Shown here: in pieces, positions 2,330-62,700 of the stretch
Numbering within the stretch: the stretch's first letter is position 1
How the letters are laid out: each line of letters opens with the position of its first letter
Source: Geosiphon pyriformis uo1
Taxonomy: Eukaryota > Fungi > Glomeromycota
Direction of reading: 5' to 3'
DNA: 64,000 nucleotides
Assembly (NCBI GenBank): GCA_016748015.1
Contig: JAAOMT010000134.1
Location: forward strand, 1,494,757-1,558,756
The notes under the pieces: generated by a model
The model's database searches: none
What the model saw: only the letters and a program-made list of their open reading frames with translations
What the model was told of the DNA's origin: nothing
Program-made: the position numbers and the translations under genes

Positions 2330-3000
2330 TCATTGACCAAAGCTTATATGTGTCAATTGTGGCAAGAAACTGTCATCAATGGGCACATGCTGTGGCAATG
2401 ACAAGGAATACCCAATCATGACTAAATTTTATTGTCACCCATGCGTTGTAGAACGTTTTGGATGACCAAAATGACAAGAAAAATGGGACAACCAATCATG
2501 TTTTGCATGTGGAATAATCTTGTTTGACGAGAAAATATGGAATAACATTCCTGGACAAAGAGAAACATGTGACAAGACATGTTAGTACACTATCTTAATA
2601 AATAACTGGGTATGCAAGAGAACACCAATCGACAATACATGGAAAAGAGTGTTATGACAATTGGAAGGATATCCTCATGATGAACATGAACTTTGGAGAA
2701 TGGCATATGCAAAAGCAGAAGACATGACAACCAGTAAATTACTGGAAATAAAAAACAATTCTTTATCTCTTCCTGAACCTGAATACATCCAAACTTTTGA
2801 CATCTTTGGCAACATCAAGAATAACCTGGAAGAATTCCATGAACACTACTAGTGATTAATGCCCACAATAGAAAAGCAGAAACAATGCTTAGAAGAAATC
2901 AACACTCAACTATATGACCACTGTTTGATTCCATGTGACTTCCAGTATTGTAATGAGTATGACCTTATTTACAATCTACCACCATGCATGATCTACACAA
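2330..3000 (+). pseudogene. Cys-rich putative Zn-binding domain between protease and dUTPase (function unknown)
   Basis: CVNC...CC...CHPC...CFAC...CDKTC followed by (C)DHCLIPCDFQYCNE; conserved in A3, A5, A6 and B. Confidence 0.75.
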
Positions 3001-3235
3001 TCCCAGAAGAAGAAGAACCAATCAGTAGCTGTGCATCAAAATTGGAATCAGTTTTTGATCTCAATTCAAACTCCAACAACAATGACGATGAAAACACTGG
3101 TTTTAGCTCTATTCAAAACAGCAATGAAAACAACAGCAATTGGGACTTCAATTCAAACCCAGAAATATATATTGCACTCCCTAATCTTACCAAGAAGCAG
3201 ACCTTGAAATAGTTTAGCAATAATGGGAAGGGATT

Positions 3236-3630
3236 ATGCCAAAACGTGTGCATGATACTAATGTCAGGTTTGATCTGAGATATCTGAGAAAAGAAGTCAT
3301 CAAATTGGAACCAAATTTGCACACATGTATTGATTTCAAAATAGCTCTAGAAATTTCAGCAACAACAATGATTCAGTTAGCATCTAGAAGTAGCCTAGCC
3401 AAAAAGGAAATCAACATCAGAGAAGAAATAATTGATGCAAGATACATAGAAAATATCATTGCTATGCTACAAAATGACTCTAAAAAGGCCTATATTATAG
3501 AGCTAAATAAAAAAATAGCACAAGCAATATTCCTACCTCTGGTAAAAATAACTCAATTAGTGTTAGTAGAAAACAGGGAAGAATTAAGGATTACTGCTAA
3601 AGGGATACAGAGATTCGGATCAATGTGTAG
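3236..3630 (+). pseudogene. dut: dUTPase domain within pol
   Basis: Decayed motifs 1-5: NVRFDL (DAGFDL in A3), ASRSSLA, IIDARY, KIAQAI, KGIQRFGS. Confidence 0.9.
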
Positions 3631-4189
3631 AATAGACATATCAATTAATATGGTAAAGAAAGAGATTATTGACAAAGGAGAAATTATCTCAACTTGTCAA
3701 TCAATTTCCATTCCACCATATGACCAGTATATGTTACATATAAAAAGAAAAGTAAAGAATCAGGCTCAGTTGTTTGAAACAGAAGCCACCATTTGCAAAT
3801 CAGAAGAGATTGGACTCACTAATCTCTACATATCAGCCAAAAGCCCTAAAAACATCAAAATTCCTATCTACAATACAACTGAAAGTGTTATTAAAATACC
3901 AAAAAGAACTATTATTGGATATTTGACCACTGAAGTTGAGGATCAACCACCAAATCACATTCCAGATTTTTCATAGCTTTGTGGATATGTAGATATTATA
4001 TCACAAACCATTTACAGACAAAGTGAATGTTATCTGCTCCAACCAGAACAATTGAAACATATGAACATAGAGAATCTAGATTCACTTCAATGGATGCAAC
4101 TCAAGATGTTATTTAACAATTTCAACAACATCTTTGCTAGCGAAAATGAATTTGGCCAAACCAACATCATTTAGCATCAGATCAAGACT

Positions 4190-5460
4190 GGAGATATAAT
4201 GCCAATTAAACAAAAAGCATACAGAGTACCATCAGCTAGCCATGAGATCATTCATCAAGAAATCAACCAGATGCTTGACAACGGGCTAATTCAGCCATCA
4301 ATGAGTCCATAGTTATTACCAATAGTACTAGTCCATAAGAAGAATGGAAAAATCCGTTTTTGTGTAGATTATCAGAAACTAAATGGAGTAACAAAAGATG
4401 ATAACTATCCAATGCCAAAGATCCAAAAACTATTCAATGCTTTTGGAGGAAATAAATGATTCTCAACATTGGACTTAGATAGTGATTACTGGCAAGTAGC
4501 CATAGATTCAGCTGACAAAAAAAAAACAGCATTCACTACAAAAGAAAAAAATTTTGAGTTTGAAGTCATGTCATTTGACTTGATGAATGCTCCAGCAACA
4601 TTCCAATGGCTCATGAAAATTGTCTATATAGAACTACTATAGAAATCAGTAGTTGTATACTTGGATGACACCAATGTGTTCTCAAAAACATTTGATGATC
4701 ATCTGCATTATTTCCAACAAATGTTTAAAAGGTTGAGGAGAGCAGGATTGAAACTAAATGCAACCAAATATTTCTTTGGAAAAACTAAACTCAAGTTTTT
4801 GGGACATATAGTGAGCAAAGATAAAATCAAAACAGATCCAGACAAGATTAAATTAGTTAAAAACTTTCCAGTACCAACCAACTTAACAGAACTAAGAGCA
4901 TTTTTAGGTTTTGTAGGCTATTATTGCCATTTTATCAAAGACTTTTCAAAACTAGCTCAGCCACTTTACCATCTACAAACCAAGAATGTGAAGTATAAAT
5001 AGACCAAAGCTCAACAAGAAACATTTGACACATTAAGAAGAAAGCTTATTCAAGCTCTAGTATTGATGTATCCAAATTACAACAAACTATTTATCATTAC
5101 TACTGATGCATCAGGTCAAGCATTGGGAGTAGTACTATCACAGAAAAGACCTGATGAAAGAAAGTATCCAGTAGCTTATGTCAATAGAAGTTTAAGCCCA
5201 GTAGAAAAGAACTATAGAACTCCAGCACTGGAACACTTAGCAATTTATTAGGCTGTTATCAAATAGAAAAAATACTTAAGCCAAAAGTTTGAAATATATA
5301 CAGATCACAAAGGATTAACTTTAATCCAAAAACAAAAATTTGCAGACGATTGCCATGCCAGATAGAAAATAGAACTTTTACCATTCAATTATACAGTACA
5401 TTATAAAAAGAAAAAGACAATGGAAATGCTAACAAATTATCGCGAATAAGACAAATCTAA
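4190..5460 (+). pseudogene. pol: Reverse transcriptase and RNase H, ending at a stop after LSRIRQI
   Basis: [18 protein letters not shown] (TACTTGGATGAC at ~4658), FLGH, LRAFLG, TDASG, YTDH; TAA at 5458-5460. Confidence 0.95.
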
Positions 5461-5490
5461 AAACATTTCAACCCAAAAATATAACAAAAG

Positions 5491-6867
5491 ATAAACACAC
5501 AAAAATATTAACAACTCCAGTATTATATAAATACTCAATTGTTCAAGGAGAAATTATCTCAAAAAGAACAAAACAACATAAAACAGCAATCAAAATATTT
5601 TATTAATCATCAAAATATATTTTACCGGAAAAACAGAAGAAATCCAGACCAACCAACCAGAGTAATTACAGAATTAGAAAAAAAAACAATATTGTTTAAC
5701 ATGCACTCAGATTCAACAACAAGACATTTTCATAAAGAAGCAACCATAGAAAGAACCAAAAAAAGATACTATTGGCCATCAATGTATCCAGATATCATCC
5801 AATATGTTCAAAATTGTGATGTTTGTCAAAAAAGAGGAGGAACAAAACCCAGTAAGCCATTAAGACCAATCAAAGTGGAACAACTATTTGATTGTATTGG
5901 AATTGATTTAGTCGGACCATTAACAATTACCAGCAGAAAAAATAGATATATTGCAGTAGTCATAGACTATCACACTAAATGGCCAAAAGCAAAAGCAATT
6001 CAAAGAGTGGATGTAGAATCTGTTGCCAAATTTGTTTATTAAGACTTGATTTGTCGACATGAATGTCCAAAAGAATTATTATCAGACCAAGAAACTCACT
6101 TTGTGAACAGAACACTAGCAGAATTGAGCCAAAGATTTGGAATTAAAAGACCACTATTATCACTATATCATTCACAAACAAATGGTTCAGTTGAAAAATT
6201 TAATAAAACATTGTGTGAAGCAATCACCAAACTCAGCCAAGAAAACCAGAATGAATGGGATTTGTTTATACCATCAGTACTATTTGCTTATCGAACAATA
6301 AAGCAAAATACTACACAAACAACACCATTTGAATTAGTATATGATAGAAAAGCAACAATACCAGTTGAAATAGAAGTCAACACATATCCAATTGAACCAA
6401 TAACAGAAGAGAATTTCCAGGAAACATTGTTGAGAAGGACATATGACTTAATGGAAACATTAGAAAACAAATAAAGAAGAACAGCTGATAATATTCAAAA
6501 GTCACAAGAGAAACAGAAAGAAAGACATGATAGTCAACTACCAGACAAACCAGTTGAGTTCAAGATTGGAGACAAAGTACTATTACACCATATCAAAACA
6601 GAAAAACAATGGAGTGGAAAATTTGATCCCAAATGAGATGGACCATTTTACATAGAAGAAATTCTTGGAAATAGAGCTTATAAATTAAGATAGGACAACA
6701 AAATTTTAACCAAAACAGCACATAGTGATTAACTGAAACCATATCACCAAATAGCATTATCATCTACCAATAACATTCTACAATTAGGAGTACAATGAAT
6801 ACTAGTTTAACTAGATGAGATTCTACAAGATCTGGAATCAATCATAATCATTAGACCAAACACATAA
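5491..6867 (+). pseudogene. int: Integrase (HHCC, DDE core, GPF/Y module; no chromodomain) as a separate ORF
   Basis: HSD..HF..YYWP..CDVCQ, GIDLVGPL, LSDQ, QTNGSVEKFN, DGPFYI; ends DLESIIIIRPNT*. The ATA at 5491 corresponds to ATG in A5. Confidence 0.92.
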
Positions 6868-6926
6868 AATCAAACAATAAAAGAGTATATAAAAACACAG
6901 TATATGTGACAAAGCAACCAAAAAAA

Positions 6927-7533
6927 ATGGAAATACCAGATCATATTTACACCATAGCTCAATAATTATTCCAGGCCTTAAATTAACAACCAAACAATTT
7001 GCTATTAAAACACCAAAAGAAAAACAAAGAATACACCATATTAGCAGTTATCAAAGAATGATAAAAACTGGTCAGATAACATAATAGAAAAAGTAAAGAA
7101 CACTTTTGGAAAAATACTTATTATGGCACTAACAGAAGAACTTACAAAAAAAAATTGGAAGCAATAGACAGAACAACTTCCAATATCATACTGTTACTAC
7201 CAGTTAAGTCGAAAGTTGAATATTCAGGAGTTGTATATCGACAAATCCAAGAGAATATTTAACCAAAACATAATACAGCAAATTGAAAAATTTATTGGAA
7301 AGAAAACAAACTTGACACTACATGTGAGAACAATTTATCAACTGCACAACATATTTCAGAACTATCCAGAAATACTGTTACACTCTGACATAGAAACCAT
7401 AACCATTAATCAATGGGAAAGAATGAACAATACACAAGTAGAAGATGTGAGGAATAGAGTCAAACAAACAATATTTGAAAAAAAAGTATTAGAATTAATT
7501 CAAAATGAAGATTTCAACAGAGCTCAATATTAA
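6927..7533 (+). pseudogene. ORF3: accessory ORF in the env position, unknown function
   Basis: MEIPDHI...YYQL...RTIYQLHNIF...EDFNRAQY*; small frameshifting deletion relative to the A3 copy; no hydrophobic TM stretch seen. Confidence 0.8.
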
Positions 7534-7546
7534 AAGAAGGAGATAA

Positions 7547-8376
7547 TGTTACTCATAAAAAAAGAAGACAGATATAGAAAATAACAGACTAATAAGAGAA
7601 TAGTATTTAACATGTGAGCATATTGCTCAGCAATGTGGAGCAATGTTAGAAAATTAGAGCACATTACTCAGCAATGTGAGCATTGCTCAAGAAATTATAG
7701 CACATCACTCGGAAATGTGAGCAATCTCATAAAACATCAATTATATATATATAGCAGTAGCATTAGAAATAGAAAAAAAAAGAATTTTTAGTTAGAAGAT
7801 CTTTCTATTTAGATTTTATCTAAAGCAACTTTCCAAATCACAAATATCAATAAATAATTATTCATTATCTTAATCCACTCTCTACTATCAACATGAAGTG
7901 TTGATAGTAATTGATACTTAACCACACTGGAACAATAGCTCTTGATCATGGCTATTGACAGGATACTAACTTGTAATTGCTTTTGTTATTTTCTTTATTT
8001 TCTTTTATTTTCTTTTATTTCTTTTGTTATTTCTTTGGTATTACTAAAAGTGATTAAGGATTAAGCACTGAGATACAGATGTCATAAGGACTGGTAAAAG
8101 ACCTGTGAAACAAGGGTAGAACACTCATAGATTTGAGGATAGCTTACCAGAAGGATTACCAGCCACCACACTGAAAAAGAAATTTGATGAAACTGCAGTT
8201 TTGGGAAGCTATGAATAAAACTATTAATTAAAATCTCTGTCCATTATACAAAGAACTCAACTTTAAAAACCTTCAGATATAACTAACATACTAGTGTCAC
8301 CAGCCTTGTCAAGATATTGAGCACCAAGTTACAGATTTGTTATTTGATTTGAGACCCCAAATAATCATCTGTAACA
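7547..8376 (+). repeat. 3' LTR of A1 (U3 type alpha: CACATTGCTnAGCAATGTG palindromes), preceded by a PPT at 7532-7546
   Basis: AAAAGAAGGAGATAA|TGTTACTCAT...ATCATCTGTAACA; TATATATA box at ~7742; R-U5 nearly identical to the LTR at 59763-60637. Confidence 0.93.
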
Positions 8377-9812: not shown

Positions 9813-11832
<2,020 letters not shown>

Positions 11833-12842: not shown

Positions 12843-12922
12843 AAAATTCGCCGAAATTTACAGAAATTCGCCGAAATTTATATGAAATTCGCCGAAATTT
12901 ATAGAAATTCGCCGAAATTATG
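12843..12922 (+). repeat. U3 tandem array of AAATTCGCCGAAATTT quasi-palindromes (also at 21653-21732)
   Basis: Four 20-21 bp units in each LTR; the 5' LTR array abuts an N gap, the 3' LTR array is followed by decayed units and then a gap. Confidence 0.9.
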
Positions 12923-19238: not shown

Positions 19239-20623
19239 ATAGATCCCAGAAATTACAGTAATCTTAAAAATTATTTAAAGACTCTTACCATGCCAAAAAA
19301 CTGGTCTCCAAGTAAAAACATTATTTACAACACCAATCAAAACAATATTTCATACACCAGAACAAAATCTATTATAAAAATCACAGAAACTCAAACCAAT
19401 CACTCAGATTAGTACAAGAGAATGAAAAAAAAACAATTTTATACAACATATACACAGATCCGTCTTCAGCACACTTGGAAAGAGATGGAACAATTCAAAA
19501 AACTCTTGAACATTATTTTTGGTCTCACATGCAAAAAGACATTTGACAATATGTAGAATCTTGTAATAGTTGTCAAAAAAGAAAAGAAACTTGCCCCACA
19601 GAACTTTTAAATCCAATCAAAGTTGAACAACCTTTTGACAGAGTTGGAATTGATTTAGTCGAACCATTATCTATCACAACCCAAGGAAATTGCTATATTG
19701 CAGTAGCAGTAGATTATCTTACCAAATGGTCAAAAACTAAAGCCATCCAAAGAACAGATGCAAAATCAGTAGCAAATTTTATCTATGAAGACATTATTTG
19801 TAGACATGGATGCCCAATTGAACTTTTATCTGATCAAGGAACACATTTTGTAAACAACTTGATACAAGAAATTTGTGAATGGTTCAATGTCAAAAAACCT
19901 CTATCATCACTTTATTACCCTCAAACAAATGAACTTGTAGAATGTATCAACAGAATATTGTGTGAATTTCTAGCCAAAGTCTCAACAGACTTTGAACAGG
20001 AATGGGATATCTTTATTTCATCAGTGTTACTAGCATACAGAACACTAAAACAAGATACTATGAAACACACACCATTTGATCTTACTTATGGAAGGACAGC
20101 AACATTACCAATTAATTTCATAGTAAAAACATACCCAGTGCAACCAATCAATAAAGAAAACTTTCAAAAAACACTCCAAAGAAAGGCTTACACTCTTTTC
20201 AATACACTGGAAGAAAAAAGAAGGATAGCAGCAACTCACATTAAACATTCCCAAGCTCAACAAAAAGAAAGACATGACAACAAATTACCACCTATTACCA
20301 ATGAATTTAAAGTTGGAAATAAAGTTCTTTTACACAGAACTAAGGCGGAAAAACAATAGAATGGGAAATTTGAAAACAAATGGGATGGACCATTTTATAT
20401 TCACAAAATTCTAGACAATAGATCATACAAGTTAAGATTTGATGATAAAATACTAGCAAAAGTTGCACATAGAAACAGATTAAAACACTATCATTTTAAA
20501 AACAATCCTGAAACATTAATTCCACAAATTGGTACACATTCCCCTTTAATTAATCCTAAAGATATTCCCCGAAATTTAGAACCAATAATTATAATAGAAC
20601 AACAACCAAACTTGAACACTTAA
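19239..20623 (+). pseudogene. int: Element B integrase, separate ORF
   Basis: HTD..HL..YFW..CNSCQ, GIDLV, LSDQGTHF, WDGPFYI; ends NLEPIIIIEQQPNLNT*. Confidence 0.92.
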
Positions 20624-20762: not shown

Positions 20763-21470
20763 ATGATTATTCCCCGAAATATTCAACAAATATTCCAAAA
20801 GTTAATGTTAGCCTTGAAAACACTTCTTGACTTATCCATAACGATTAATGAAAGTCAAATTAATTACATTCAGAAAGAAACTACAGCCCCAGTAGCAAAT
20901 CATTCACAGAACTATCACCCTTATAGAAGAAAAACAAGAAGTCACTCTGAAAATAGGTTACCAAGATTTATGAAGCAAGCACTGGAAGAAAATCTTTTAA
21001 TTGCCCCTATTGACATTCCACCAAATGCTACAATGTAACTAAAACTTCTACTACTTCTCAATGAACAGAACAATGAACACACCCCTATTTATAAATACTT
21101 TCACATTGAAAAAACACTTTATGAATGAAAACTGGAACTTGAAACAACAAATCTCACTTCTGAAGCTATACAAAAACAAATTTATAATGAATTCAAAACA
21201 GCAGCTGGACCAAAAAACACTCACTACAAACTTAGAGCAGCTTTTAGACTCTATGATTTGTTTAATACTTGTGAAAATGTTCTACAAAATTCAATACTGC
21301 AACCAATGAAAATCCAATATATTGGCAAACTCACAGAACTGAAATTTCAACAATTTTCAGACCAGATTACTTCAATTATTTTGGATCACTATCTCAATAT
21401 CACAGATAGTGCTTGGACTTCGATAGAGCTCAGTTTTGAGAAGGAGATTATGTTATCAGTAGAATTTTAG
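20763..21470 (+). pseudogene. Element B ORF3 (~235 codons, one frame with two internal stops)
   Basis: MIIPRNIQQIFQ...YKYFHIEKTLYE...RAAFRLYDLFNTCENVL...IQYIGKLTELKFQQF. The ORF calls at 20763 and 21258 are in the same frame. Confidence 0.82.
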
Positions 21471-22459
21471 CTATTAATTAGCATGAAATTACTCTTATAA
21501 TTCCTATAATTAATTAGTATATTAATATCATTTCAAATTATCATTTATTATTTAGTCAATTATCACATATCACGATTCAATTAAATAATCCAATTAGTAT
21601 AACAAAAAGTAAGATGATCAAATTACACAATACTCTGAACTTTGTAACATTCTAAAATTCGCCGAAATTTACAGAAATTCGCCGAAATTTATATGAAATT
21701 CGCCGAAATTTATAGAAATTCGCCGAAATTATGAATAGTTCATCCAAATTAATCAATAGTTCAGCGAAATAACTTGTAGTTCATCAAAATGTATCTTTAG
21801 TTTGCCGNNNNNNNNNNNNNNNNNNNNGACTAGTACTACAACAAGTTGTATAAAAGAAGAGCTTTTCTTTTCAAGAAAATGTATCTTACTTTAGATTTAT
21901 CACTTAGAACCATTCCTATACACACAAAAAAAAATAAATATTAAATAATTCAAAAAACCAAATTCTTTAATTATTGCACCTGGAAAATCCCCAAAACCCA
22001 ACTAACATTTTGAAATTGATTAACTACCAATTTCAGTAAACTGTTAGTGACTCCAGGCCTGGATAGAAAACGTTTCCCTTGATAAAATCCTATTTCTTTT
22101 ACATTTCTTTTATTTTTATTTTTTTTTCTTATTACAATCATTAAGGTAGCCTACAGATGAGATTCTTGTAAAAGAGTTGACTTTCACAGCAAAATAACTA
22201 CACATTTTTAGTAAACTTCCAAATGAGCAATTTCTGGAAAAGAGTTGATATTTACTACAATGTAACTACATAAAGTAACTGGCAAAGAATTGGCCATTCT
22301 ACTTATAAGCCCAGCAGTTCAAATTATAGGAGATAATTTGAAGATAAATTCAGTTATTGGAGGTTCAACTACTTCTAAAAAACGTGAATTTGCAACCAAC
22401 AGACAGTTACAACATTCAAGAAAAGAGACCAAAAACCTCTGGTAACAGCATCTGTAATA

Positions 22460-25243
22460 CTGCAAAAAAGCAAATCATCAAAATACTGATGTTTTTTCCA
22501 GACTTATCTCTTAGTAATAGTACAACTTCTCAACCAAATCAACTTAATTATTAGTATCTCTTCCTTTGATAAACACAATAATGGATTTGGATAACTATTC
22601 TGCCTTAATAAAATTTTTGGATAAAGAACAATATCCACCAGATTACACTTAATAACAAAAAAAACATTTGCACAAGCAATTAAATTTTTATTTAATTTGC
22701 CAGAACCAACTTTACAAAAGAAATAAAAAAGATTCTAACCACCTCCAAAGAGTCATTAGATTTGAAAAAAAAATTGTGATCTATAACATATATATTAATC
22801 TATTAGTTGAACACTTTGGAAAAACAAAAACAATTCAAAAAACTTTAGCTCACTATTATTCTATCTTAGAAAAAAACATTGCTAAATACATCAAAACCTG
22901 TAACACCTGCCAAAGAAAAGAAAAACTTAATTGCAAAAAAGATATTTATTTAATCTTTGTTGGTCAATTATTTAACAGAATTGAAATAAATGTTGTTGAA
23001 TCTTTAACAATAATTCTTGATGGCAATAGATACATTATTACAGCTACTGACTATCTTACAAAGTGAGTAGAAGCAAAAGCTATTCCAGACCAAACAGCAG
23101 TTTTAATAGCCAACTTTATTTATGAAAATATTATTTGTTACTATGGCTGCCCTAAAAAACTTTTATCTAATAAAGGAAGAACTTTTCTTAGTACATTGGT
23201 TAAAAAACTTTGTAGAAAAATGGGAATATATTATAAACTTTTTTTTTTTTATTACCCATAAACAAATAGTCTAGTAGAACGTTTTAACAGAATTCTATGT
23301 AAAACATTAGCCAAAACTAGTAAAAAAAACAAACTTATGAAACAAAGTGCTGTTTTTAGTCTTGTTTGTTTATAGAATTGTGAATCATAACATAACAAGT
23401 TATAAATTCTTTTATCTGCTCTATAAATAAATGACAACTCTACCAATAGAAATTAATATTGAGACAATATCTTTTGAAAAGATTACTATAAGAAATTACA
23501 AAGACATTTTGCAAAAAAAACTTGGTATTATTTTTGACTTTTTGGTAAAAGCACAAATAATTGCCTTTAAAAAGATAAAACAGTTTCAAAAAATGCTTAA
23601 AAAAGAGAAAATCTATAAAACACTTTCCTTAAGTGTTGGTAATTTAATTTTAAAATATTGTTCAAATAGAGATAATGTCTATAATAATAAATTTTTTAGC
23701 CAATAGAAAGGATTTTTTTTAGTCAATAAAGTTTTGAACAATAGTTTTTATATTCTATAAAATTAATATAGAACAATTTTCAATAATCACCCTGTTTATA
23801 ATACACAACTCAAGAAATATTACAAATGATTTGATTAATTATTTGTTGTAATAATACTGACTCAAATGACCAGCAAAAATCAGATATAAATAAATGCACC
23901 ATTCCCAAAACAGAGATATTTTCAATCAACATAAACAATTATTTCCTAGATTAAAACATTCAAAATACTTTCTATACTCTTCATAAGTATTGGATTGAAA
24001 ACTATCCAAATACTACTCTGATTATTGAAAAACAGACTACCATAACTGATAACAGTAGAACACACACTGTTATTAGACCAAAAAAAACCATTACCAAAAG
24101 AGAAAGAATTGGTAGCAAAATGAATAAATATCTGCTAAAAAGTATAATAACAGTAATATTTATATCTTCTATCATAATTGAAAAAACAATTAAAAAAATT
24201 TTGTCTATAAACAAAAACTTGTTATATAAAGACAATTAAAACTCTATGGTTATTTTAGTGAAATTATAGAAAATATAAAGCTTATGAAGAAAACAACTTT
24301 AAAGATACAGGTAAAAATTTTGAGCATTATACAGTTAAATATTCCAAGAGTTTTAACTATTGCTAAAAAAGCCAAAATTTTTATACAAAGATTTGGTTTT
24401 TTGGATACAAAACTCATTTTGTCTCAGATATTATATATTTTATCTACAAAGAACTTTAATAAACTAGTTAGTTTTGAGTTAGATAAAATTTTTTAAATAT
24501 ATTATTTCATAAATAGCTTGATTTTGTTAGAGCTTAATCTCTTTGGAAAGAATGATATATGATTGAAACTCATATTTTTTATTAGCTATCACATGTATTA
24601 GTCACTAATATCATATAATTAGCCACCTTATTTTTAGATAGTAATCATTAATCTGATCAATAACCTGATTGTTGACCTAATTATTGATCTAATTATTGAC
24701 CACTTTTAATAGTTATATAAGCAATAAATTTTTTAACTATAAAAAAACATAATCAAACTAATAAAATAAAACCCACTATTAATTAATTCCTTTTATATTG
24801 CTTATTCTCTTTTTTTTATCTTTAAGTATCTAAACATTTTGGAATAAAAAATTACTTGTTGGTATTCACATACATTATCTTTTCTCCTTTTTGATTTGTA
24901 TTGTTAAAATTAACCTGAAAAGTGATTGCTTGTTCTTGTGATTTATTAAATAAAGAAATGATTAAAAAGCACAATAATATTTGTTATTAATTTTAAGAAT
25001 TGCCAAGTTAAAACATAGAATAATAACAGTGGTGTTATCTTGTTGACAATTATGAACTATTTCTCTACTTTCAAATTTCCAAAAAAGATTTGTAACTGTG
25101 ATTTTTATAAGACTGATCATGCACATTGAATTCTTACTCATTCAATTTGCTCTCTTATTGTAATTCTCTTTTTGATTATTTTTATTACCTTACAATCCTA
25201 TTCTCTCTTGCTATCCATTAGCTTGTTATTCCAACTCATAACA
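22460..25243 (+). mobile_element. Family-D element, part 2: RNase H end, separate integrase (ATG 22581), ORF3-like region (~23880-24540), probable 3' LTR (~24558-25243)
   Basis: SRLIS* then MDLDNYSALIKF; HFG..CNTCQ, ATDYLTK, LSNKGR, LVERFNR; pre-PPT AGAGCTTAA motif; ATTGACCTAATT repeats; CATAACA end. LTR limits are uncertain. Confidence 0.75.
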
Positions 25244-29300: not shown

Positions 29301-29786
29301 TATTTTTGAAATCAATTAATCAGTACTTAATATCTTAATTAATTAGTAAACAACAAAAAAAAAATAATAATAAAAAATAAAAAAAGAGATAAAAAATTAA
29401 TATCTTGTCAATAGCTGTAATTAAGAATTATTAGTTTAATATAATCAAGTATCAAATTTTATCAACATAGATTTTTGATAGTGTAAAAATAATTAAAATT
29501 TCTTAATCAAATAATAACAATATAATTGGATAATAATAGATATTTTTATTGATATAAATATAATTTTATTTTAAGTTATAGAAAATTTTTTTTTAAAAAA
29601 AAAGATATTAAATAATTACTTATTGTTAACTATTGTTTTGAATGTTTTTTTTCTTTTAATATTCTTGCTATTTATACATAATTTGTATTATATAAGATTC
29701 CTTAAAATCTTTCAATTTTTTTTTATTATATTTCTTTTTTATTAGTTATTTTTCTATCTATTATGATTTTTATTCTATAAGTAACA
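26330..29786 (-). mobile_element. Highly decayed family-A element, 5' half (5' LTR 29039-29786, PBS relic, gag, protease)
   Basis: Collinear with A3/A5 gag-PR; AACAAATCTGTAACTTGGTGCT U5 motif at ~29075; LTR end CTATAAGTAACA. Confidence 0.82.
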
Positions 29787-30875
29787 GTAAAAACCATTTA
29801 TTAATTACAACTAAAATTTTAAGGTTATTCAAAAATATTGCTATATTTAGCAATAAACACAATAATTATTAATTAATTAAAAAAAATAACAAATGCTCAA
29901 TTTAAAAAATTACAAACTAAAACCATAAAGACAATTTTAGAAAAAAAAATAATAGAGTTAATTTAAAATAGAAAATTAAAAAATTTATAAGATTTAAAAG
30001 ATTTTAACAAAGTTTAATATTAAAAGAAAAAAATAATATTACTTATAAAAATAAAAATTATAATAATTAATAATAGTTAATAAAAAATAAACATAGTAAA
30101 AAAAATTACAGAATTTTTTTAAGAAATTGCAGAATTCCAAAATTTTAGAATTTTTCTTAAGAAATTGTAGGATTCCAGAATTTCAGAATTTTTTTTAAAA
30201 AATTTCAGAATTTTAAAAAATTTTGTATAATAAAAATTATATATATATAGTAATAGGATTAGAAATAAGAAAAAACAAATTCTTAAAGACTAATAGTTAG
30301 ATAAGTTAGTTATAAAATACTTCTCTTTTTAAAAAATAGTTTTTTATATTTTGAAATAGAATTATATCTATATTAATAAAATACTTATTTATTATTTTAT
30401 CTATATTATTTTCCTTATTAAATTAAAATTATTATACTTCAACTCTATTAACAATTTATACTAATAATATTTGCTATTTAATTATATTGGATCAATAGTT
30501 TTTAATTATAATTATTAACAAAATACTAATTTTTATTTTTTTTTATTTTTTTTTTGTTATTATTTACTAATTAATTAAGAAATTAAGTACTAATATTAAT
30601 ATTAAGAATAATCTAGTAAAAAATCTGTAAAACAAAGATAAAAACTTAAAAATAGCTTATTAAAAAAGCACAACTGTTAAATTAAACTGGCCTTTATGTT
30701 AAAAAAAAAATTTGAAAAAACAACTATCAAGTAAACTTTTGTTTATTATATAAAAAACTCAACTTAAAAATCTTTAGATTTGAAATTTTTCAGAAATTAA
30801 CATCAAAATTAGCTATTAAATATTAAGTTATAAGTTTGTTATTTATTCTAACATTCCAAATAATTATCTGTAACA
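29787..30875 (+). mobile_element. Decayed family-A 3' end: ORF3 tail (A5-like), PPT and 3' LTR 30037-30875 (U3 type beta)
   Basis: ACAAATGCTCAATTTAAAAAATTACAAACT matches A5 ORF3; GAATTCCAAAATT/GGATTCCAGAATT array; ends TAATTATCTGTAACA. Confidence 0.8.
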
Positions 30876-33800
30876 TTAAAAAAAGATATGTAAAATAAAA
30901 TATTTATTTACAACAATTTTTATACAAAGTATATTATAAAAAAAAAACTAAAAACACTAATATTAATAGCTTATTAAGAATAATTCAAATCTAATCTTGT
31001 ATCAATAGACATAACTACTTATTAATAATTATATTAATATTTGTTAATACTTTAGCTTAAGAAAAAATTATTTCAACAAAAACAAAATACTATACAAAAA
31101 CAAGTTTAAAATTACCTTATTTACAATGAACAATAATATTAATAAGAATACTATAATCACACTACACTATAACAAGTTAAAAAAAAATACCAAAAAAGAA
31201 ATCATTCTGTTCAATATGTATTTTAATCCAACAATAAAACACTTTAACAAAAATGCTATTTTAGAAAAAATAATTAATTTATATTATTAGCTAACAATAT
31301 ATAAAAATATCTTTAAAAATATCTTTAATTATAACTTTTGCCAAAGAAAAAAAACCAAAGTAATAGAATCACTTTAATTTATTTTAATTAAAAATTTATT
31401 TGATAAAATTAAGATTAATTTGATTGGACCTTTTTTTCTTACTTCAAAAAAAAATTAATATATTATAATAGCTATAAACTATTTTATAAAATAGCCAAAA
31501 ATTCAAGCTATTTAAGTTGTTAATACCAAAACAGTAGCTAAATTCATATACTAAGGTCTAATTTGCAAACATAGATGCCCAAAAAAATTATTACTCGATT
31601 AAAAAACTTATTTTGTTAACAATATTCTAACAAAATTAAGCCAATAATTTAAAATAAAATAATCTTTGTTATTTTTATATTATTTTTAGACAAATAAATT
31701 AGTAGAACAATTTAACTAAATATTATATAACACATTGGCAAAAATAAGTTATAAAAATATACAAGAATAAAACTTATTTATATTTTCAGTATTATTTACA
31801 TACCAAACATTAAAGCAAAATACTATTTAATTTATAGTATTTAAATTAAAAAATTTTTCTGCTTAACAAAAACAATTATCAAAGAAAACTTTGAAATTAC
31901 ATTATACTGAAAAACATACCAGCTTATAAAAACACTGAAAACCAATTATAAAACAACAATTGACAATATTAATAACTCTTAAAAATAATAATAAAAAGAC
32001 ATAATAATTATTTATTAGACCAACTAGTTAAATTTAAGATTAAAAATCAAGTATTATTATATTATACCAAAATTAAAAAACAATAATATAAAAAATTTGA
32101 TCTAAAATAGAACAAACTATTTTATATATATAAAGTTCTAAGTAATAGAGCTTATAAACTATAATTAGAAAACAGAATTTTAAAAAAACCATACATAAAA
32201 ATTGTCTAAATTTTATCATACAATACAAAAATTATTATTACTTATATTTTAATTAAGAACACAAATTTTATTAATTAAATTTGAAGATATTTTACAAGAT
32301 CTAAAACCAATTATTATATTTAAATATAGTTTATATACAAAAATCTGAATAATATAAATTAGATAAATAAATACTAAGAAAATAAAAAAAGAAAACTCAA
32401 AACACTCATAGTATAAATCTATTATACAAAATTTTAAAGCTTTCACAACAACTATTTAAAACAATTTAATAATTCACATTATTAATAAAAATCATAATTA
32501 ATAAAAAAAAATATAATACAGAAATATAAGCAAAAAAGAATAAACAAAAGTTTAACTAAAACTGAATGTTTCTATTTTTATAAATAATTAAGAAAAAAAA
32601 ATACATGGTTTTAAACAATAAAAGAAATCAAAAAATTATATACAACTTAGTCATAAAACTAAACATTAGAGAATAGACTTCTGAAATCTTCAAAATATGA
32701 AAAAAAAACTTTTATTAATATACTGGTTTTTTAAAATTGGCAAAAAACTAAATCTACAGATATTATATATAGATAATAACAAATAAATATTTAACAAAAA
32801 AGCTTTTTAAACAAGTTGAAAATTTTGTTATAAGAAACAACTTGACATTATATTATAAAACAATATATTAACTATATTTAATATTTAAATATTGTTCTAT
32901 TATACTATTAAACAATTTATTAAAAACTATTATAATTAATAACATAAGACAAATAACAAATTTTTAATTTAAAAAACTACAAAAAGCAATAATTAATATG
33001 ACAATTAAATATTATATTAAAAGAACAATTTTTAAAAATACTTATAATTTTGCAAAAGCTTAATTCTAAAAAAGAAAGATAATATTATCTGAATAAAAAA
33101 ACTAATCCAAAACTATTAAAAAAATATAATTAACATAAAATAATATAGAAAAAATATAATAATACAAGATAATACAAAATAATATAAAATAATGCAAAAT
33201 AACATAAAATAACTCAAAATAATACAAATAATATACAATAATATAAAATAGTACAAAAAAACTAATAATAACATAAAATAACTAATTATAATATAAAAAA
33301 ATAAAACAATAGCTAAAATAGCAAACAATAAATAAGAATAACAAGTAATTAAAAGCAATTTTATAAAATTAAAAAATATGTATAAAAATAAGTAATTTTA
33401 ACAAATAGAAAAAAACAGTAAAAAAACAAGAATTACTTTTCTTTTAAAAATTTTAATCTTAGCTTAATAAATTTTTATCTTATATATTTTTGAACCAATT
33501 CAATAAAATCTTATAATTTAATTTACAAATACATAATTACAACATTTTAATTGTCAAAATTAAATTAATTGTTTAACTTACTTTTATTTTAAATCAAATA
33601 TTAATAGCATAAAAATGCTTTTAAAATTTTAATAACTTAAACCAATTATTTTTAATTATAGCAATTAATGAAATATTAATTTTTTTATTTTTTTATATTT
33701 ATATTTTTTTTTGTAAAGCAAAAATATTGAAAATTAATTGTTTAAAAATAAACTTTATAATAGTCTAATAAAAAAAAAGCTTTTTTTAAGTTTGAATATT

Positions 33801-35957: not shown

Positions 35958-38900
35958 TGTTACAGATAATTATTTGAGGTCTCAAATCAAATAACAAATT
36001 TATAACTTGGTGCTCAGTATTTTAACAATGTTGATGTTACAATTATGTTAGTTGTATCTAAAAGTTTTAGAGTTGAGTCCTTTGTATAATGGACAGAAAT
36101 TCAATGACAATGTAGTTAGTTGGTGAGTTGTGTTCCTAATTTCTGTCTTCAGCTTGGTGGCTGGTTTATTCTGGCATTTATGTTCTTCTAGTAAGCTATC
36201 TGTTAATATATATATAATTTTACCCTTATTTCTGGGTTTTTTACCAGGCTATCTGTGATGTCAATTACTTAGTGCTTTAATTCTTAATTAGTTAGTTTTC
36301 AACAATAAAAATCAAAGAAAGAAATAAAAAAAAATAAAGAAATGAGCCAAGGCAATGTGCATGTTAGTATCTCGTCAATAGTCATGATCAAGAGCTATTG
36401 TTCCAGCATGGTTAAGTATCAATTACTATCAACATAAAGTGTTGATAGTGAAGAGTGGATTTGGATGGTGAATGATTTATTTATTTAATATTTGTGGAGG
36501 GAAGATTTTTCACTAAAAGATTCTAATAAAAAGATTCTGCTCTTTTTACTTCTAATGCTACTACTATATATACATAATTGATGTTCTACGAGATTGCTCA
36601 CATTCCCAAGCAATGTGCTATGATTTCTTGAACAATACTCACATTGCTGAGCAATGTGTTCTCATTTTCTAACATCATTCCACATTGCTAAACAATGTGC
36701 CATGTTTTCTGACATTGCTCTACATTGCTAAGCAATGTACTGTGATTTCTATTATTGCTTTATATTGCTGAGCAATATGCTCATATACTATATACTATTT
36801 GCTTATTGGTCTACTATTTTTCCTATATCTGTTTTCTTTTTATAAGTAACATTATCTCCTCTTTTTTAATATTAAGCTCTGTTAAAATTTTCATTTGGAA
36901 TTAGCTCTAATACTTCTTTTTCTAGTATTGTTTGTTTGACTCTGTTCTTTATGTCTTCTACTTGTGTATTGTTCATTCTTCCTCATTGATTAATGGTTAT
37001 GATTTCTATGTTAGAGTGTAACAGTATTTTTGGATAGTTCTGAAATATGTTGTGCAGTTGGTAAATTGTTCTCACATGTAGTGTTGAGTTCACCTTTTTC
37101 CCAATAAATTTTTCAATTTGCTGTATTATGTTTTGGTTAAATATCCTCTTGGATTTGTCAATATACAACTCCTGAATATTCAACTTTTGACCTAACTGGT
37201 AGTAACAGTATGATATTGGAAGTTGTTCTGTTTATTGCTTCCAATTCTCTTTTGTAAGTTCTTCTGTTAGTGCCATAATAGGTATTTTCTCAAAAGTGTT
37301 CTTTACTTTTTCTATTATGTTATCTGACCAGGTTTTATTATTTTTTGGTAACTGCTGATATAGTGTATTTTTTGTCTTTTTTTTGGTGTTTCAATAGCAA
37401 ATTGTTTGGTTGTTAAAGATAATTTCTATGTCTAAAAGTTGTTGACTTAAGGCCTGAAATAATTGTTGAGCTATGGCATGAATATGATCTGGTATTTCCA
37501 TTTTTTTTGGTTGCCTTTGTTGCATATACTGTGTCTTTATATACTCTTTTATTGTTTGATTTTATGTGTTTGGTCTAATGATTATGATTGGTTTCAGATC
37601 TTGTGGAATCTCATTTAATTAAACTAGTATTTATTGTACTCCCAATTGTGAAATGTTATTGGTAGATGATAATGCTATTTGGTGATATGGTTTCAGTTAA
37701 TCACTATGTGCTGCTTTGGTTAAAATTTTGTTGTCCTATCTTAATTTATAAGCTCTATTTCCAAGAATTTTTTCTATGTAAAATGGTCTATCTCATTTGG
37801 GGTCAAATTTTCCACTCCATTGTTTTTCTGCTTTGGTACAGTGTAATAGTACTTTGTCTCTAATCTGGAATTCAACTGGTTTATTTAGTAGTTGGTTATC
37901 GTGTCATTCTTTTTGCTTTTCTTGTGACTTTTGAATGTTGTCAGTTGCTTTTTGTCATCTGTTTTCTAGTGTTTCCATCAAGTCATATGTTCTTTTTAGC
38001 AATATTTTTTGAAAATTGTCTTCAGTTATTGGTTCTGTTGGATAAGTGTTGACTTTTATCTCAACTGGTAATGTTGCTGTTCTACCATATACTAATTCAA
38101 ATGGTGTTGCTTGTGTTGTGTCTTGCTTCATTGTTCAATAAGCAAATAATACTGATGATATGAACAAATCCCATTCATTTTGATTTTCTTAACTGATTTT
38201 GGCAATTGCTTTACACAATATTCTATTGAATCTTTCAACTAGTCCATTGGTTTATGGATGATATAGTGATGATAATGGTTTTTTTATCTCAAATCTTTGA
38301 CTTAATTCTGTTAATGTTCTATTCACAAAATAAGTTCCTTGATCTGATAGTAGTTCTTTTGGACATCCATGTCGACATATCAAATCATGATAGACAAATT
38401 CAACAACGGATTCTGCCTCTGCTCTTTGAATGGCTTTTGCTTCTGGCCATTTTGTAAGATAGTCCATAGCTACTGTAATATATCTGTTGCCTCTACTGGT
38501 GATTGTTAATAGTCCGACTAAGTCAATTCCAATGTGATCGAATGGTTGTCCCACTTTAATTGGTCTTAATGGTTTATTTGGTCTTGTTCCTCCTTTTTTT
38601 TGACAAGCATTACTATTTTGAACATATTAGATGATATCTGGATATATTGATGGCCAATAATATCTTTTTCTGGTTCTTTTTATGGTTACTTCTTTATGAA
38701 AATGCCCTGCTGTTGAATCTGAGTGCATGTTAAATAATATTGTTCCTTTTTCTGGTTCTGTGATTACTCTGGTTGGTTGATCTGGATTTTTTCTGTTCTT
38801 TTAGTAAAGTATATTTTGATGATTAATAAAATATTTTGATTGTTGTTTTATGTTGTTTTATTCCTTTTGAGATAATTTCTCTTTGAACAATTGGGTATTT

Positions 38901-47315: not shown

Positions 47316-50300
47316 TGCTACAGGTAATTATTTGGGGTCTTAGGTCAAATATCAAATCTGTAACTTGGTGCTCAAAACTACTTATGTTGTTAATAATATC
47401 TTTAAGTGGTTGGTATCTGAAGGTTTTCCAAATGAGTTCTTTGTATAATAGACAGAGATTCAATAGTTGTTTTATCCATAGCTTTCCAGACTCGCAAGTC
47501 TATCAATTCTTTTCTCGGCTTGGTGGCTGGCAATCCTTTGGTAAGTAATCCATATTTTCTGTACGTGTTCTACCCATTCCCAGAGGTCTTTTACCAGGCA
47601 ATCTTTGACATCAGTAATCAGCACTTTTAATCAATCAGTTAGTGCACAATAACAAAATCACAGAAAATAAAGAAGTAAAAAAATATAAAGAAAGATAAAA
47701 GAGAAAATAAGAAATAAGCCAAGACAATTTGCAAGTTAGTATTCTGTCAATAGCCGTGATCAAGAGCTATTGTTCCAGTATGGTTAAGTATCAATTATTA
47801 TCAACATGAAGTGTTGATAGTGAAGAGTGAATTTGATATGGTGAATAATTATTTATTTAAGGATTGTGGTAACTAAGCTAAGAATTCTTGGTGTTGATTC
47901 TGTCTTTTCTGCTTTTAATGCTACTGCTATATATACATATTTGAAATTTCTCAATTTCTCAATTCCTTGCAACAGGAATCCTGAAATTCTTGGAATCTTG
48001 CAATTCCTGATGAGAGGAATCCTGGAATTCTAGAATTCTGCAATTCCTTGTTGGAGAATTCTGAAATTTCTGGAATCCTGTAATTCCTCTGAAAAAAATT
48101 TTGGAATTCCACATTTATTATGTTTACATCTGATTGGCTAATATCTACTGACTAATAATACTATATTTCTTATATTCTATGAGTAACATTATTCTCTCCT
48201 TTTAATATTGAGCTCCGTTGAAATCTAATTCCTTTAATTCTCTCCCTTAAAGTATTTCCTGAATTTTGTTTTCGAGAATTACTTGTGTTATTTGAGTCTG
48301 TAATTCTTCAAATTGAGCATTGGTGATTTTTCCCAATTGATTACTGGTAACTGTATCCATTGCTTTGTTGAGTAGAATTTCTGGTCAATCCTGAAATGCT
48401 GTATGTATTCAGTATATAGCTCAAGCTTGTGTGGATAAGTTGTTTTTCTCCACAAAATGTTCTAGTTGTTGTAGTATTATTGTGTCAAATAACTGCTTTG
48501 TTTTATCCATATATAAGTTCTGGATATTCATGTATTGTCCCAAGTAAAAATAACTATAATTTTTTGGAAATTGTTGTGTCCATCAGGTCCAAGTTTTTCT
48601 GATAAGTTCTTGGTGTAATCTGACTATTTGTTGTTTTTTTATGGCCAATTTTATTTTGGTCATGATCTTGTCAACAACATTTTCAAGTCTTTTCTGTGCT
48701 TTGTTTTGTAGTATCTTTGGCGTATTTTTGTAACAAATGGTTTATTGTAATTTCTATCTCTTGGTGTTGGATTAATTGAAAAATTTGTTGGGCTAATGAA
48801 TAGATATTGTCCATAATTTTCATTTTTCTGATCTCTTCTGTTACATTGACCATGTTCTTATATATTCTTTTGTTAATCAATTAGACATGTTGTTATCAAT
48901 GATAATGATTGGTTCCAGATCTTGTGGAATCTTATCTGATTGGACTAGTATTCTCTGTACTCTTAATTGTAGAATATTACTGGCGAATGATGATGCTGTA
49001 TGGTGATATGGTTTCAATCAATCTCCATGTGCTGCTTTGGTCAAGATTTTGTTATTCAATCTTAATTTGTAAGCTCTATTTCTTAGAATTTTTTCTATGT
49101 GAAATGGTCTGTCCTATTTGGGGTCAAATTTTTTACTCCATTGTTTTTCTACTTTGGTACAATATAGTAGTACTTTGTCTCCAATCTTGAATTCAACTGG
49201 TTTATCTGGTAGTTGGTTATCATGTCTTTCTTTCTGTTTATCTTGTGACTTTTGTATGTTGTCAGCTGCTCTTCGTCATTTGTTTTCTAATGTTTCCATT
49301 AAGTCATATGTTCTTTTTAACAATGTGTTTTTGAAATTTTTTTCTGTTATTGGTTCGGTTGGGTATGTGCTGACTTTTATTTCCACTGGTAGTATTGCTG
49401 TTTTACTATATACTAATTCAAATGGTGTTGCTTGTGTAGTATTTTGCTTCATTGTCTGATAAGCAAATAGTACTGATAGTATTAACAAATTCCAATCATT
49501 TTAATTTTTTTGGCTCAGTTTGGCTATCACTTTACACAATGTTCTGTTAAACCTTTCAACTAATCCATTGGTTTGTAGATGGTATGGTGATAATAGTGGT
49601 CTCTTAATTCCAAATTTTTGGCTTAATTCTGCTAATGTTTTGTTTACAAAATGAGTTTCTTGGTCTGATAATAATTCCTTTGGACATCCGTGTTGACAAA
49701 TTAAATCTTGATGAACGAATTTGGCAACAGATTCTGCATCCACTCTTTGAATTGCTTTTACCTCTGGTCATTTAGTAAGATAGTTTATGGCTACTGCTAT
49801 GTACCTGTTTCCTCCACTGGTGATTGTTAATGGTCTGACTAAATCAATTCCAATATGGTCGAATGGTTGTCCTACTTTGATTGGTCTTAATGGTTCACTG
49901 GGTCTTGTTCCTTCTCTTCACTAACAAGCATCACAATTTTGAACATATTGGATGATGTTTGGATACATTGATGGTCAATAGTACTTTTTTTTGGTTCTTT
50001 CCATGATTGCTTCTTTGTGAAAATGTCCTGCTGTTGGATTTGAGTGCATGTTGAATCATATTGTCTTTTTTTCTGGCTCTGTAATTACTCTGGTTGGTTG
50101 ATCTAGATTTTTTCTATTTTTCCGATAAAGTATATTTCGGTAAGTAATAAAATATTTTGATTGTTGTTTGATACTCTTTTGTTCCATTTGAAATAAATTC
50201 TTCTTGAACTGTTGAGTGTTTATATAATGTTGAAGTTGTTGATATTTTTGTATGTTCATTTTTTGTTATATTTTTCATTGGTATTGTTCTGGTTTTGTTA

Positions 50301-59762: not shown

Positions 59763-62700
59763 TATTACTCATAGAATATAGAAAATATATTAACATATGA
59801 AATAGCCAATCAGAGGTAGCCGTAGTGAATGTGAAATTCTAGGATTCCTTTCAAGAGAAATTGCAGGATTCCAAGAATTTCAGGATTTTCTATGCAAGGA
59901 ATTACAGGATTCCAGAATTCCAGAATTTTTCTCAAAAAGAATTGCAAGATTCCAGGAATCCCAGAATTTCTGAAGTAAAGAATCGAGGAATTAAGAAATC
60001 TCAATTATGTATATATAACAGTAGTGTTAGAAATAAAAAAAACAGAATCCTTAGTTAGAAGACCTCTCTGTTTAGATTTTATCTAAGCAACTTTCCAAAT
60101 CACAAATATCAATAAATAATTATTTACTATCTTAATCTACTCTCTACTATCAACACTTCATGTTAATAGTAATTAATACTTAACTACACTGAAACAATAG
60201 CTCTTAATCATGGCTATTGATGAGATACTAACTTGTAATTGCTTTTTGTTAATTTCTTTATCTTCTTTTATTTTCTTTTATTTCTTTTGTTATTTTTTTG
60301 GTTTTACTAAAATTGATTAAGGATTAAGTACTAAGATACAGATGTCATAGAGACTGATAAAAAACCTGTGAAACAAGAGTAAAACACTCATAGATTTGAA
60401 AATAGCTTATCAAGAGGATTACCGGCCACCATGCTGAGAAAAAAATTTGACGAAACTGCAGTTTTGGGAAGCTATGAATAAAATCATCAATTAAATCTCT
60501 GTCTATTATACAAAGAACTCAACTCTAAAACCTTCAGATACAATCAATGTACCAGTATCACCAGTCTTATCAAGATATTGAGCACCAAGTTACGGATTTG
60601 TTATTTGATTTGAGACCCCAAATAATCATCTGTAACATTTGGTGCTTCCTGTGAGGTATAATCCTATAGAGAACCAGCACCAACAACTAATTAACAGTGG
60701 CAGAATCAAAAAGTATAGGAGCAAATCATTTAAGATTCGCGAAATCCTTATTTCAACACTATTGTTAACACTTGAGATTAAATCACAATCATATATCAGT
60801 GGAATCAGCCTTTAATTTCTACGTCAATAAGAGAATTGCCTATTTGTTAGAGACACCAGTAAACACTGAATCAATGAGAGAAACTTTCTACCACAAATTA
60901 ATACAAAAAACCAGCTTACCAACAAATCATAATTTTGCATCTATCATCACTGAAATTAACAAAGAAATTGAACATCACACACAACAAAGATACCCAATCA
61001 CCTACTCAAGTAAAGGCAAAGAAAAACTACAAACACCAGCAGTAACATCTTAATGGATTTAACTATCCACTTGGAAGAAACACAGAGTTGAATCACCCAC
61101 AAATCCATCATATTATTATACTCCTGGAAGCACCATCCATATCACATCACCAAACATGTCCACATTAAACATGACATCAACATTTGAATGATTTCCATTC
61201 CAAAATAAACAAAGGAAAACAGAATTACTAGGCCCATATGGCAAATATTTTGAAGGATTTCAATCACGAACACTAATGTCATCAGAAATTCAATCACCAC
61301 CACCTCTACCAGATTTCAGAATAGCCAATTTGTGGAAAGCATCAGAATCAGAAGAAGAAAGAGAATCTGAGGATCAAGAATTTACTTACCAGAACCCGAT
61401 TCCAGAAAACCCAGAAGTTGAAACCCCGAACATTCAAACTTCAAAAATTACAAATCAAGAAAATCCAGAAAGCAAGACTCTAAATATTCAAACACCATGG
61501 AATCAGAATATTCTAAACCCCGATTTAATCAATCAACTGAACTTATTTCCAAATATTATTATAAATCAACCACTAATTGAACCGATTATTGAACCAATTC
61601 AACTGCAGCCACTTCAACTGCTTCAACAACCACAACAGCTGCTTTCACCATCACAACAACAACTTCAACTTCAACAACTACCACAACAACACATTGTAGC
61701 ACCAATAACATATGCTCCTATTACCAAAATCAAAAAATTCATCAGTGAAGAGAATGATGTCCAAGTATGACTAAATGATATGGAAAAAGCCATCACAGCC
61801 AATGGATGAAATAACGCCAGAGCCATGCAGGCCATTCCCTATTTTTTTCAGAATACCACTGACTTATAGTATCAAAGCTTAGCTAACAAACTCCAGGATT
61901 TTAATGCATTCAAGCTTGCATTTCCACAATACTTCAGTAATAATAATAGTATTAATTGACTAGCAAACACTTTCACCACTATCAAACAAAGAGAAAATGA
62001 AGCAGTCACTACTTACCTAGGATGCTTCCACAGAAACCTGCGCCAAATTCAAGCAATTCAGGCTGACTATTTCATAGTGCCACAAATCCTAAACCAATTT
62101 ATTAGAGATCTGTACAGTAGCATCCTCCAATACATATGTCCAATGCATCCAGCAAACTTTCAAGCTACAGTTACCAATGCCAAAGATTTTGAAACAGCTA
62201 AACTCAAAGCTAACTACACCCAAGCCATCAATTTAGTAATGAATAAATCATCTGAATTGGATTCTAAGTTGAAACAATTCAGTAAGTTCATTAACCAAAA
62301 ATTAGAGAAATACTTAGCTAACAATCAGGCAATCTATCAACCTCCACAATAATGCAATAATCAAGGAAATATGAATTGTTTCTAGAATCAGTTGCACCTA
62401 TTATCCTCGACCAATTAGCAATGGCAGTAGAAGACACATGTTTGTCACTACTGTGGTAAACAAGAGCATTTAAGAGTTGACTGTAAGTTAAGAATAGATA
62501 ACCAATGATCAGAAAATCAATATCAAAATCTCGATTGCTGGTTTCTAACTCCGAATTACCAATCCAACTTAGCACCATATCAACCAACTTACCTGCTGAT
62601 AACACAACAGCCAATATATCAACCACTCGTATATCAACTTCCAATCTATCAACCACAGCCACCAGTAATGTATCAACCATTACAGTCACAAATAATTTAT

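Follow-up and report, generated by a model that had tools for sequence, protein, structure and literature searches.

Can a simple retrotransposon encode a protein that recognises its own promoter? The question is raised by a 64,000-nucleotide stretch of the Geosiphon pyriformis uo1 genome (contig JAAOMT010000134.1, positions 1,494,757 to 1,558,756 of the forward strand; hereafter the window, in whose numbering coordinates are given), a CpG-poor nest (observed/expected 0.17) of decayed long terminal repeat (LTR) elements. Between integrase and the polypurine tract (PPT), several of these elements carry a further open reading frame (ORF), ORF3, and the adjacent U3 part of the LTR holds an array of short tandem units. 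A previous sequence-only reading of the window took ORF3 to be a self-regulating DNA-binding protein that co-evolves with its array. We find that the ORF3 family, and the mobile cassette in which it travels, are real and undescribed, and that a regulatory function is plausible; the specific proposal that ORF3 is a self-recognising activator or anti-silencer acting on its own LTR promoter via the U3 array has, in our estimate, slightly less than an even chance of being correct.

ORF3 and the U3 arrays in the window

Elements A1, A3, A5, B and E have ORF3 between their integrase and PPT, and a further fragment is found at 29781. In A1, an A-type ORF3 occupies 6927..7533 on the plus strand (79% identical to the intact 211-amino-acid (aa) protein P0005; tblastn matches in two frames) and is broken by stops and one frameshift; directly after its stop come the PPT (7532..7546, plus strand, from the sequence) and the 3′ LTR, which starts with TG at 7547 and ends at 8376 (plus strand, self-BLAST and LTR alignment). 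The A-type ORF3 of A3 (36866..37501, minus strand, reading frame and tblastn) has four internal stops, and that of A5 (48202..48823, minus strand, identified by homology), which is of a type of its own with about 42% aa identity to A1, is broken by stops and a frameshift. The B frame (20763..21470, plus strand) comprises 235 codons with two internal stops, is 84% identical to the intact 235-aa protein P0014, and its C-terminus runs over the PPT and the LTR start. The heavily decayed ORF3 of E (about 32413..33069, plus strand) was recognised by the family hidden Markov model (HMM; E = 9 × 10−17), as was the C-terminal fragment at 29781..30214 (plus strand), in which the HMM matches 29781-30023 (E = 2 × 10−12) and a GGAATTCC-type U3 array follows (tandem repeat at 30102-30214). 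Homology links the A, A5, E and B types, and the frames of A1, B, A3 and A5 each end at the PPT. Thus, the positions first read for these four frames hold, but their openness does not: no window copy of ORF3 is intact.

The earlier claim that every element with a 3′ end carries ORF3 holds for A1, B, A3, A5 and E but fails for D. The 3′ ORF of D (about 23883..24545, plus strand) scores below 0 with the family HMM, and the shared ORF3 core therefore lacks support in this element. D has, at the position of ORF3, a separate 3′ ORF family, of which the tail of gene model P0138 is a less decayed relative; it also has a 12-bp U3 unit of its own (24663-24701), which is present as described before, although in only about three copies.

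The arrays themselves, and their distinctness in each lineage, are far above chance expectation. The A palindrome, CACATTGCTnAGCAATGTG, occurs 8 times in the window with up to 3 mismatches (0.09 expected), and the B unit, TTCGCCGAAAT, 13 times with at most 1 mismatch (0.16 expected). Repeat and motif scans place the A1 array at 7610..7734 (plus strand; three 19-bp near-palindromes with a 41-bp period), with a TATA-like run behind it at about 7740-7752, and the A3 array at 36593..36780 (minus strand; five units, two of them perfect palindromes). Perfect 9-1-9 palindromes had been ascribed to both elements; they are present only in A3 (36640, 36721), the two best A1 units each being one transition away. 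By repeat scan, the A5 array (47942..48116, minus strand, 40-41-bp period) consists of GGAATTCC/GCAGGATTCC units, which recur at 30102-30214, 57428-57521 and 59859-59983, in agreement with the earlier assignment of this type to A5 and to the copy at 29787. The B array (21655..21730, plus strand, repeat scan) contains four copies of TTCGCCGAAAT at 20-21-bp spacing and is repeated in the 5′ LTR of B at 12844-12919. Arrays of differing sequence thus have a common period of 20-21 or 40-41 bp. The 5′ end of A1 is disrupted by a B-like LTR on the minus strand (3-654), which has a variant array of TTTGCCGAAAT and TTCGCTGAAAT.

A selected, soluble, helical family

Two single-protein searches returned 9 relatives for the A1 type and 199 for the B type; among the matches listed (all 9 and 120 of the 199), all 129 are hypothetical proteins of Geosiphon pyriformis, and 29 of the 120 listed B-type relatives are full length. 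A profile search of 1.84 billion representatives yielded 87 matches, of which 10 were looked up (6 from G. pyriformis, 4 metagenomic proteins), and a search with divergent members gave 10 matches among 3,335 candidates. The ORF3 profile produced two weak matches across 61 bacterial genomes, and among viral contigs there were no relatives of P0057, P0221 or the L001 integrase. L001, a metagenomic contig found in a scan of 56 of 64 parts, encodes reverse transcriptase (RT), RNase H and integrase in a stretch with one in-frame stop; a spacer of 317 bp leads to an intact ORF3 of 230 aa, which overlaps the PPT with its final codons, and an LTR follows. Because L001 has the same layout, the arrangement is not confined to one genome. 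A second B subfamily comprises 239-aa ORF3 proteins, about 66% identical to B, which may belong with the B-like LTR at 3-654.

The window copies are young but hypermutated: the paired LTRs differ by 58 transitions and no transversions in A3, 79 and 1 in A5, and 24 and 1 in B (35960-36636/45108-45788, 47316-48188/56745-57600 and 12640-13511/21451-22447, respectively; in total, 161 transitions and 2 transversions). Transversions were therefore taken as the clock. Between the A1 and A5 ORF3s, 30 transversions were found among 118 synonymous opportunities and 88 among 820 non-synonymous ones, a ratio (pN/pS), uncorrected for multiple hits, of 0.43 (p = 4 × 10−5), compared with 0.10-0.22 for RT and integrase among the A elements. 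ORF3 is under purifying selection, looser than that on pol. That every window copy is broken would fit a non-functional passenger or a chance frame, but the pol genes of the same copies are equally broken; moreover, the substitution ratio, the confident predicted fold, and the start, length and motif kept by intact members at clade-to-clade pairwise identities of about 20-37% all speak against a dead passenger, which is nearly excluded.

No transmembrane stretch was found in any of seven intact proteins (maximum 19-residue Kyte-Doolittle hydropathy 0.44-1.29, cut-off 1.3), which bears out the earlier view that ORF3 is not Env, although no dedicated signal-peptide predictor was run. Neither fold nor profile searches gave a significant match; Pfam and PHROGs scans of ORF3 returned sub-threshold matches only, with no Tas/Bel-1 family among all Pfam matches at E ≤ 1 for P0005, P0014, P0028, P0057 and P0078. 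ORF3 is, then, a real, selected, soluble and helical family that is not Env and has no enzyme match. The ORF was not found described in the literature searched, the Geosiphon genome papers and most subscription papers lying outside that scope, and repeat libraries or supplements may already contain these elements.

The predicted fold is a confident, all-helical domain with its core at residues 80-205 of P0177 (a single-sequence fold of P0005 failed, at a pLDDT of 36), and the C-terminal tail is mildly acidic in six of seven proteins. In the model, helices 126-141 and 146-160 of P0177 could be a ParB/KorB-type helix-turn-helix with a basic face. The nearest structural leads are ParB/KorB domains, at scores below significance. 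A second weak lead is the DUF1016_N profile (hhalign score 22.3, E = 0.004, probability 9%, 1 of 40 shuffles as high), which appeared in Pfam and Atlas as weak leads only and gave no retrieval in genomes; A4 compared with Escherichia coli YhcG alone gave no match, and the Atlas search had no usable match for the B fragment, with all P0057 leads under 0.9. Both helix-turn-helix likenesses are weak leads.

Cassette exchange and candidate internal sites

A1 and A3 differ by 22 transversions at 761 sites in the integrase core and by 73 at 571 in R/U5, but by only 4 at 973 over the integrase tail, spacer and ORF3 (6561-7533; p = 3 × 10−5 against the integrase core) and by 1 at 121 over the final array unit plus TATA. 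From these contrasts, the shared 3′ cassette therefore spans about 6560..7770 (plus strand), i.e. integrase tail, spacer, ORF3, PPT, U3 array and TATA. The converse is seen in the 5′ LTR of A6 (59763..60637, plus strand), where a GGAATTCC-type U3 is joined to A1-lineage R/U5 and gag: the transversion distance between A6 and A1 is 0.007 in gag and 0.013 in R/U5, compared with 0.27 in U3, where the arrays are unrelated (the A6 ORF3 lies outside the window). Integrase tail, ORF3 and U3 thus move between backbones as one cassette, recently common to A1 and A3. Between A1 and A5, the synonymous transversion distance is 0.25 in ORF3 and 0.03 in integrase, so that the ORF3 genealogy is older than that of the adjoining integrase, and cassette exchange accounts for much of the fast divergence of ORF3. 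The divergence beyond that of RT noted in the sequence-only reading is accordingly in part a matter of rate and in part one of age.

The B unit occurs outside the arrays only twice in the whole window, 198 bases before and 7 after the start of ORF3. The first copy, a candidate internal-promoter site in the integrase tail (20561..20580, plus strand), retains 17 of 20 bases of the U3 unit and scores 22.8 bits with the position weight matrix, far above every other internal match of any matrix; the second and next best (11.9 bits) is a B-type site of lesser strength that covers the opening codons of ORF3 (20766..20785, plus strand). In L001, the LTR motif TTGCCCT has three copies in U3 and two in the spacer, the latter 198 and 177 bases upstream of ORF3, and is absent from 2.1 kb of pol (five copies in all, against 0.35 expected); the matrix trained on the LTR ranks the two spacer sites first (12.6 and 12.4), scores that background in other elements also reaches. 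A cognate motif thus stands near the ORF3 start in two of five elements (B and L001). The 12-base ACTCCCTAATTT is present in both the L001 spacer (2170-2181) and the LTR start (3148-3159), and the spacer may for this reason derive from U3. The integrase tails of A1, A3 and A5 hold, in the place of the cognate site of B, an inverted repeat GATTCCA-N7-TGGAA(C/T)C with an A5-type half-site (6810-6835 in A1), unremarkable in the matrix scan. A resemblance of the A palindrome to the codons of the N-terminal IAQQ motif of ORF3 was no better than background and was dropped. At the ORF3-U3 junction, the contigs of run X1 show several alternative U3 starts behind the PPT, an A5-like one in 8 contigs, and do not reveal which ORF3 precedes each start.

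On the activator or anti-silencer proposal, ORF3 would be made from an internal promoter and would bind, as a dimer or oligomer, the palindromic units of its own lineage upstream of the TATA box; it would feed back on its own promoter and then drive the LTR, or else shield the LTR from silencing. Through a cassette swap, a backbone would acquire a protein-operator pair new to it; lineages could in this way keep from activating their rivals and slip past host silencing that targets particular sequences. A self-regulator of this kind is compatible with the cognate sites near the ORF3 start in B and L001 and with the weak helix-turn-helix leads.

Several observations weigh against this proposal. 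The helical DNA-binding fold that had been anticipated is predicted as to the helices, but neither Foldseek against PDB and BFVD nor sequence comparison with solved structures produced a significant match, and a profile comparison with HTH_ParB, made with a 38-sequence profile, scored no better than shuffled controls (hhalign 11.2, shuffle mean 12.4). The matrix scan found no cognate site near the ORF3 start in A1, A3 or A5, both internal sites of B lie within coding sequence, and a host factor could explain sites shared by U3 and the internal region equally well. First-strand transfer between two co-packaged RNAs joins the R/U5 of one parent to the U3 of the other, and the right edge of the cassette, just behind the TATA box, is where such transfer would place it; given this edge and only about 50 bp of shared sequence between ORF3 and U3, co-inheritance is therefore expected without functional coupling. 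The caution attached to the earlier proposal, that adjacency alone links the two, was thus well placed, since reverse transcription suffices. Nor is pairing strict. Among the stored gene models, three clearly read from the end of ORF3 into a U3 array (a fourth match, weak and on the opposite strand, was set aside). In two of them a B ORF3 runs into a B array, but in P0203 the ORF3 end is of the A5b clade and the array of A type. P0203 could have arisen by recombination or by splicing across two elements; alternatively, it may indicate that array types and the ORF3 tree do not run in parallel. As a one-to-one rule, the claim that each ORF3 variant travels with its own array fails at P0203; of the broader claim of co-evolution, what survives is a selected, soluble, helical family that moves with U3.

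Several of these points (the cassette edge, the short shared stretch, the lack of a significant DNA-binding fold, and P0203) fit the alternative that ORF3 is a functional accessory protein with another job (an RNA or chromatin partner, a silencing suppressor acting on host proteins, or a particle or integration helper), that the U3 arrays are host-factor sites, and that the two are co-inherited as 3′-end neighbours. Other LTR elements have varied non-Env ORF3s with enzymatic roles, according to the available text of PMC5408684. We regard this, the main alternative, as quite possible, if short of likely. However, adjacency does not predict cognate motifs at the ORF3 starts of B and L001 (a host factor acting on both promoters would), and the wholly different arrays of sister lineages would require different host factors with the same spacing.

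If ORF3 does bind its array, it might do so as a repressor in the manner of KorB, limiting its own element or conferring immunity, so that copy number is capped or related elements are blocked. KorB is a repressor, and the nearest structural leads for ORF3 are of its kind; in addition, one B site overlaps the ORF3 start codons, a common place for an autorepressor site, and the arrays abut the TATA box. We consider this improbable, in view of the massive amplification of the elements (LTR sequence is reported as 41.2% of the G. pyriformis genome in the available text of PMC11952901, and 199 B-type proteins were found); the acidic tail and the helical spacing of the upstream arrays would suit an activator at least equally.

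Carrier elements and known systems

The elements that carry ORF3 encode gag, protease, dUTPase, RT, RNase H and integrase between LTRs, with a PPT (Pfam matches to Retrotrans_gag, aspartyl protease, Integrase_H2C2, rve and dUTPase; RT and RNase H read from translations), and are dUTPase-bearing Ty3/Gypsy LTR retrotransposons. In A1, the decayed pol (dUTPase, RT, RNase H, integrase) spans 3224..6795 on the plus strand (Pfam dUTPase and Integrase_H2C2; RT and RNase H from translations). dUTPase sits between protease and RT (3224-3976, 16848-17795, 40355-41149 and 51609-52679), with a further unannotated stretch after it; no literature description of dUTPase in Glomeromycotina LTR elements was found. 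Each element also has a cysteine-rich region with several CxxC pairs and an acidic low-complexity stretch between protease and dUTPase (about 2300-3000, 15913-16710 and 52680-53087), with no above-threshold Pfam match for 15913-16707. Repeat divergence is nearly all C-to-T and G-to-A and occurs in all contexts (CpA 0.17, CpC 0.23, CpG 0.31, CpT 0.20), a context-free cytosine hypermutation unlike classic repeat-induced point mutation, which is unsupported as its cause given transitions in all dinucleotide contexts; dUTPase may counter the uracil load arising from it. Fragments resembling long interspersed nuclear elements (an ORF1 with an RNA recognition motif, endonuclease, RT) at 34485-35819, 46510-47115 and 57723-58889 are the matrix hosting the LTR element insertions. 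A 148-base poly(A) run within an RT frame (11133-11280) and two N gaps (12923-13059 and 21808-21827), each gap lying immediately after a B-type U3 array, point to problems of assembly in these repeats.

Whether or not ORF3 binds DNA, the analysis gives hundreds of "hypothetical proteins" a common identity as an accessory family so far unannotated, and demonstrates modular exchange of a 3′ cassette. If binding is real, nature would have provided a set of four or more related protein-operator pairs that differ in specificity, possibly with a new DNA-binding fold, and with it a direct system for studying transposon escape from silencing and from parasitism by related elements. The fullest version of the proposal would be a retrovirus-style self-activation loop within a simple retrotransposon: a fungal Ty3/Gypsy clade with its own foamy-virus-like loop, built from a helix-turn-helix protein of bacterial ParB/DUF1016 ancestry, lineage-specific palindromes in LTR and internal promoter, and orthogonal cassette exchange, a loop that would have powered an LTR expansion among the largest in Glomeromycotina. 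This appears rather doubtful as a whole.

Complex retroviruses are known to encode activators that recognise specific sequences in their own LTRs, and anti-silencers with sequence specificity are known in plant DNA transposons; in the literature covered, most subscription papers aside, no such self-encoded regulator was found in a fungal Ty3/Gypsy element. The helix-turn-helix leads differ from ORF3 in architecture: ORF3 is without the nuclease/CTPase domain of ParB and the PDDEXK domain of DUF1016_N (YhcG N-terminal) proteins, and has an extra N-terminal helix and beta-hairpin. Bdelloid rotifers have dUTPase-bearing LTR elements with modular, exchangeable non-Env ORF3s, but these are described in the available text of PMC5408684 as Env-like, GDSL esterases or DEDDy exonucleases, none of which ORF3 matches in Pfam.

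Closer in layout is foamy-virus Tas (Bel-1), whose gene is likewise small and placed after the replication genes, ahead of the 3′ LTR, and for which, as is proposed for ORF3, protein and target are paired by lineage. Tas binds both U3 and the internal promoter that produces it, as reported in the available text of PMC7390438, and the proposed ORF3 targets would similarly lie in U3 and, in B and L001, near the start of the gene. Unlike Tas, to which no sequence likeness was found, ORF3 belongs to Env-less Ty3/Gypsy elements of a fungal host, its U3 and candidate internal sites are alike (those of Tas have little common sequence), and its binding and activation are predicted. VANC of the VANDAL (Mutator-like) DNA transposons is likewise an element-encoded accessory protein in a heavily silenced genome, acting on family-specific short tandem motifs (available text of PMC6719617), and ORF3 lineages have family-specific short tandem arrays, although confined to U3 and carried by a retrotransposon rather than a DNA transposon. 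VANC is related to MAIN (available text of PMC13547354); neither family was among the ORF3 Pfam matches and fold-search listings, a negative that covers only the families listed there. Placed with neither group by the tests made, the ORF3 system would, if the activator or anti-silencer proposal is right, work in the manner of Tas and VANC.
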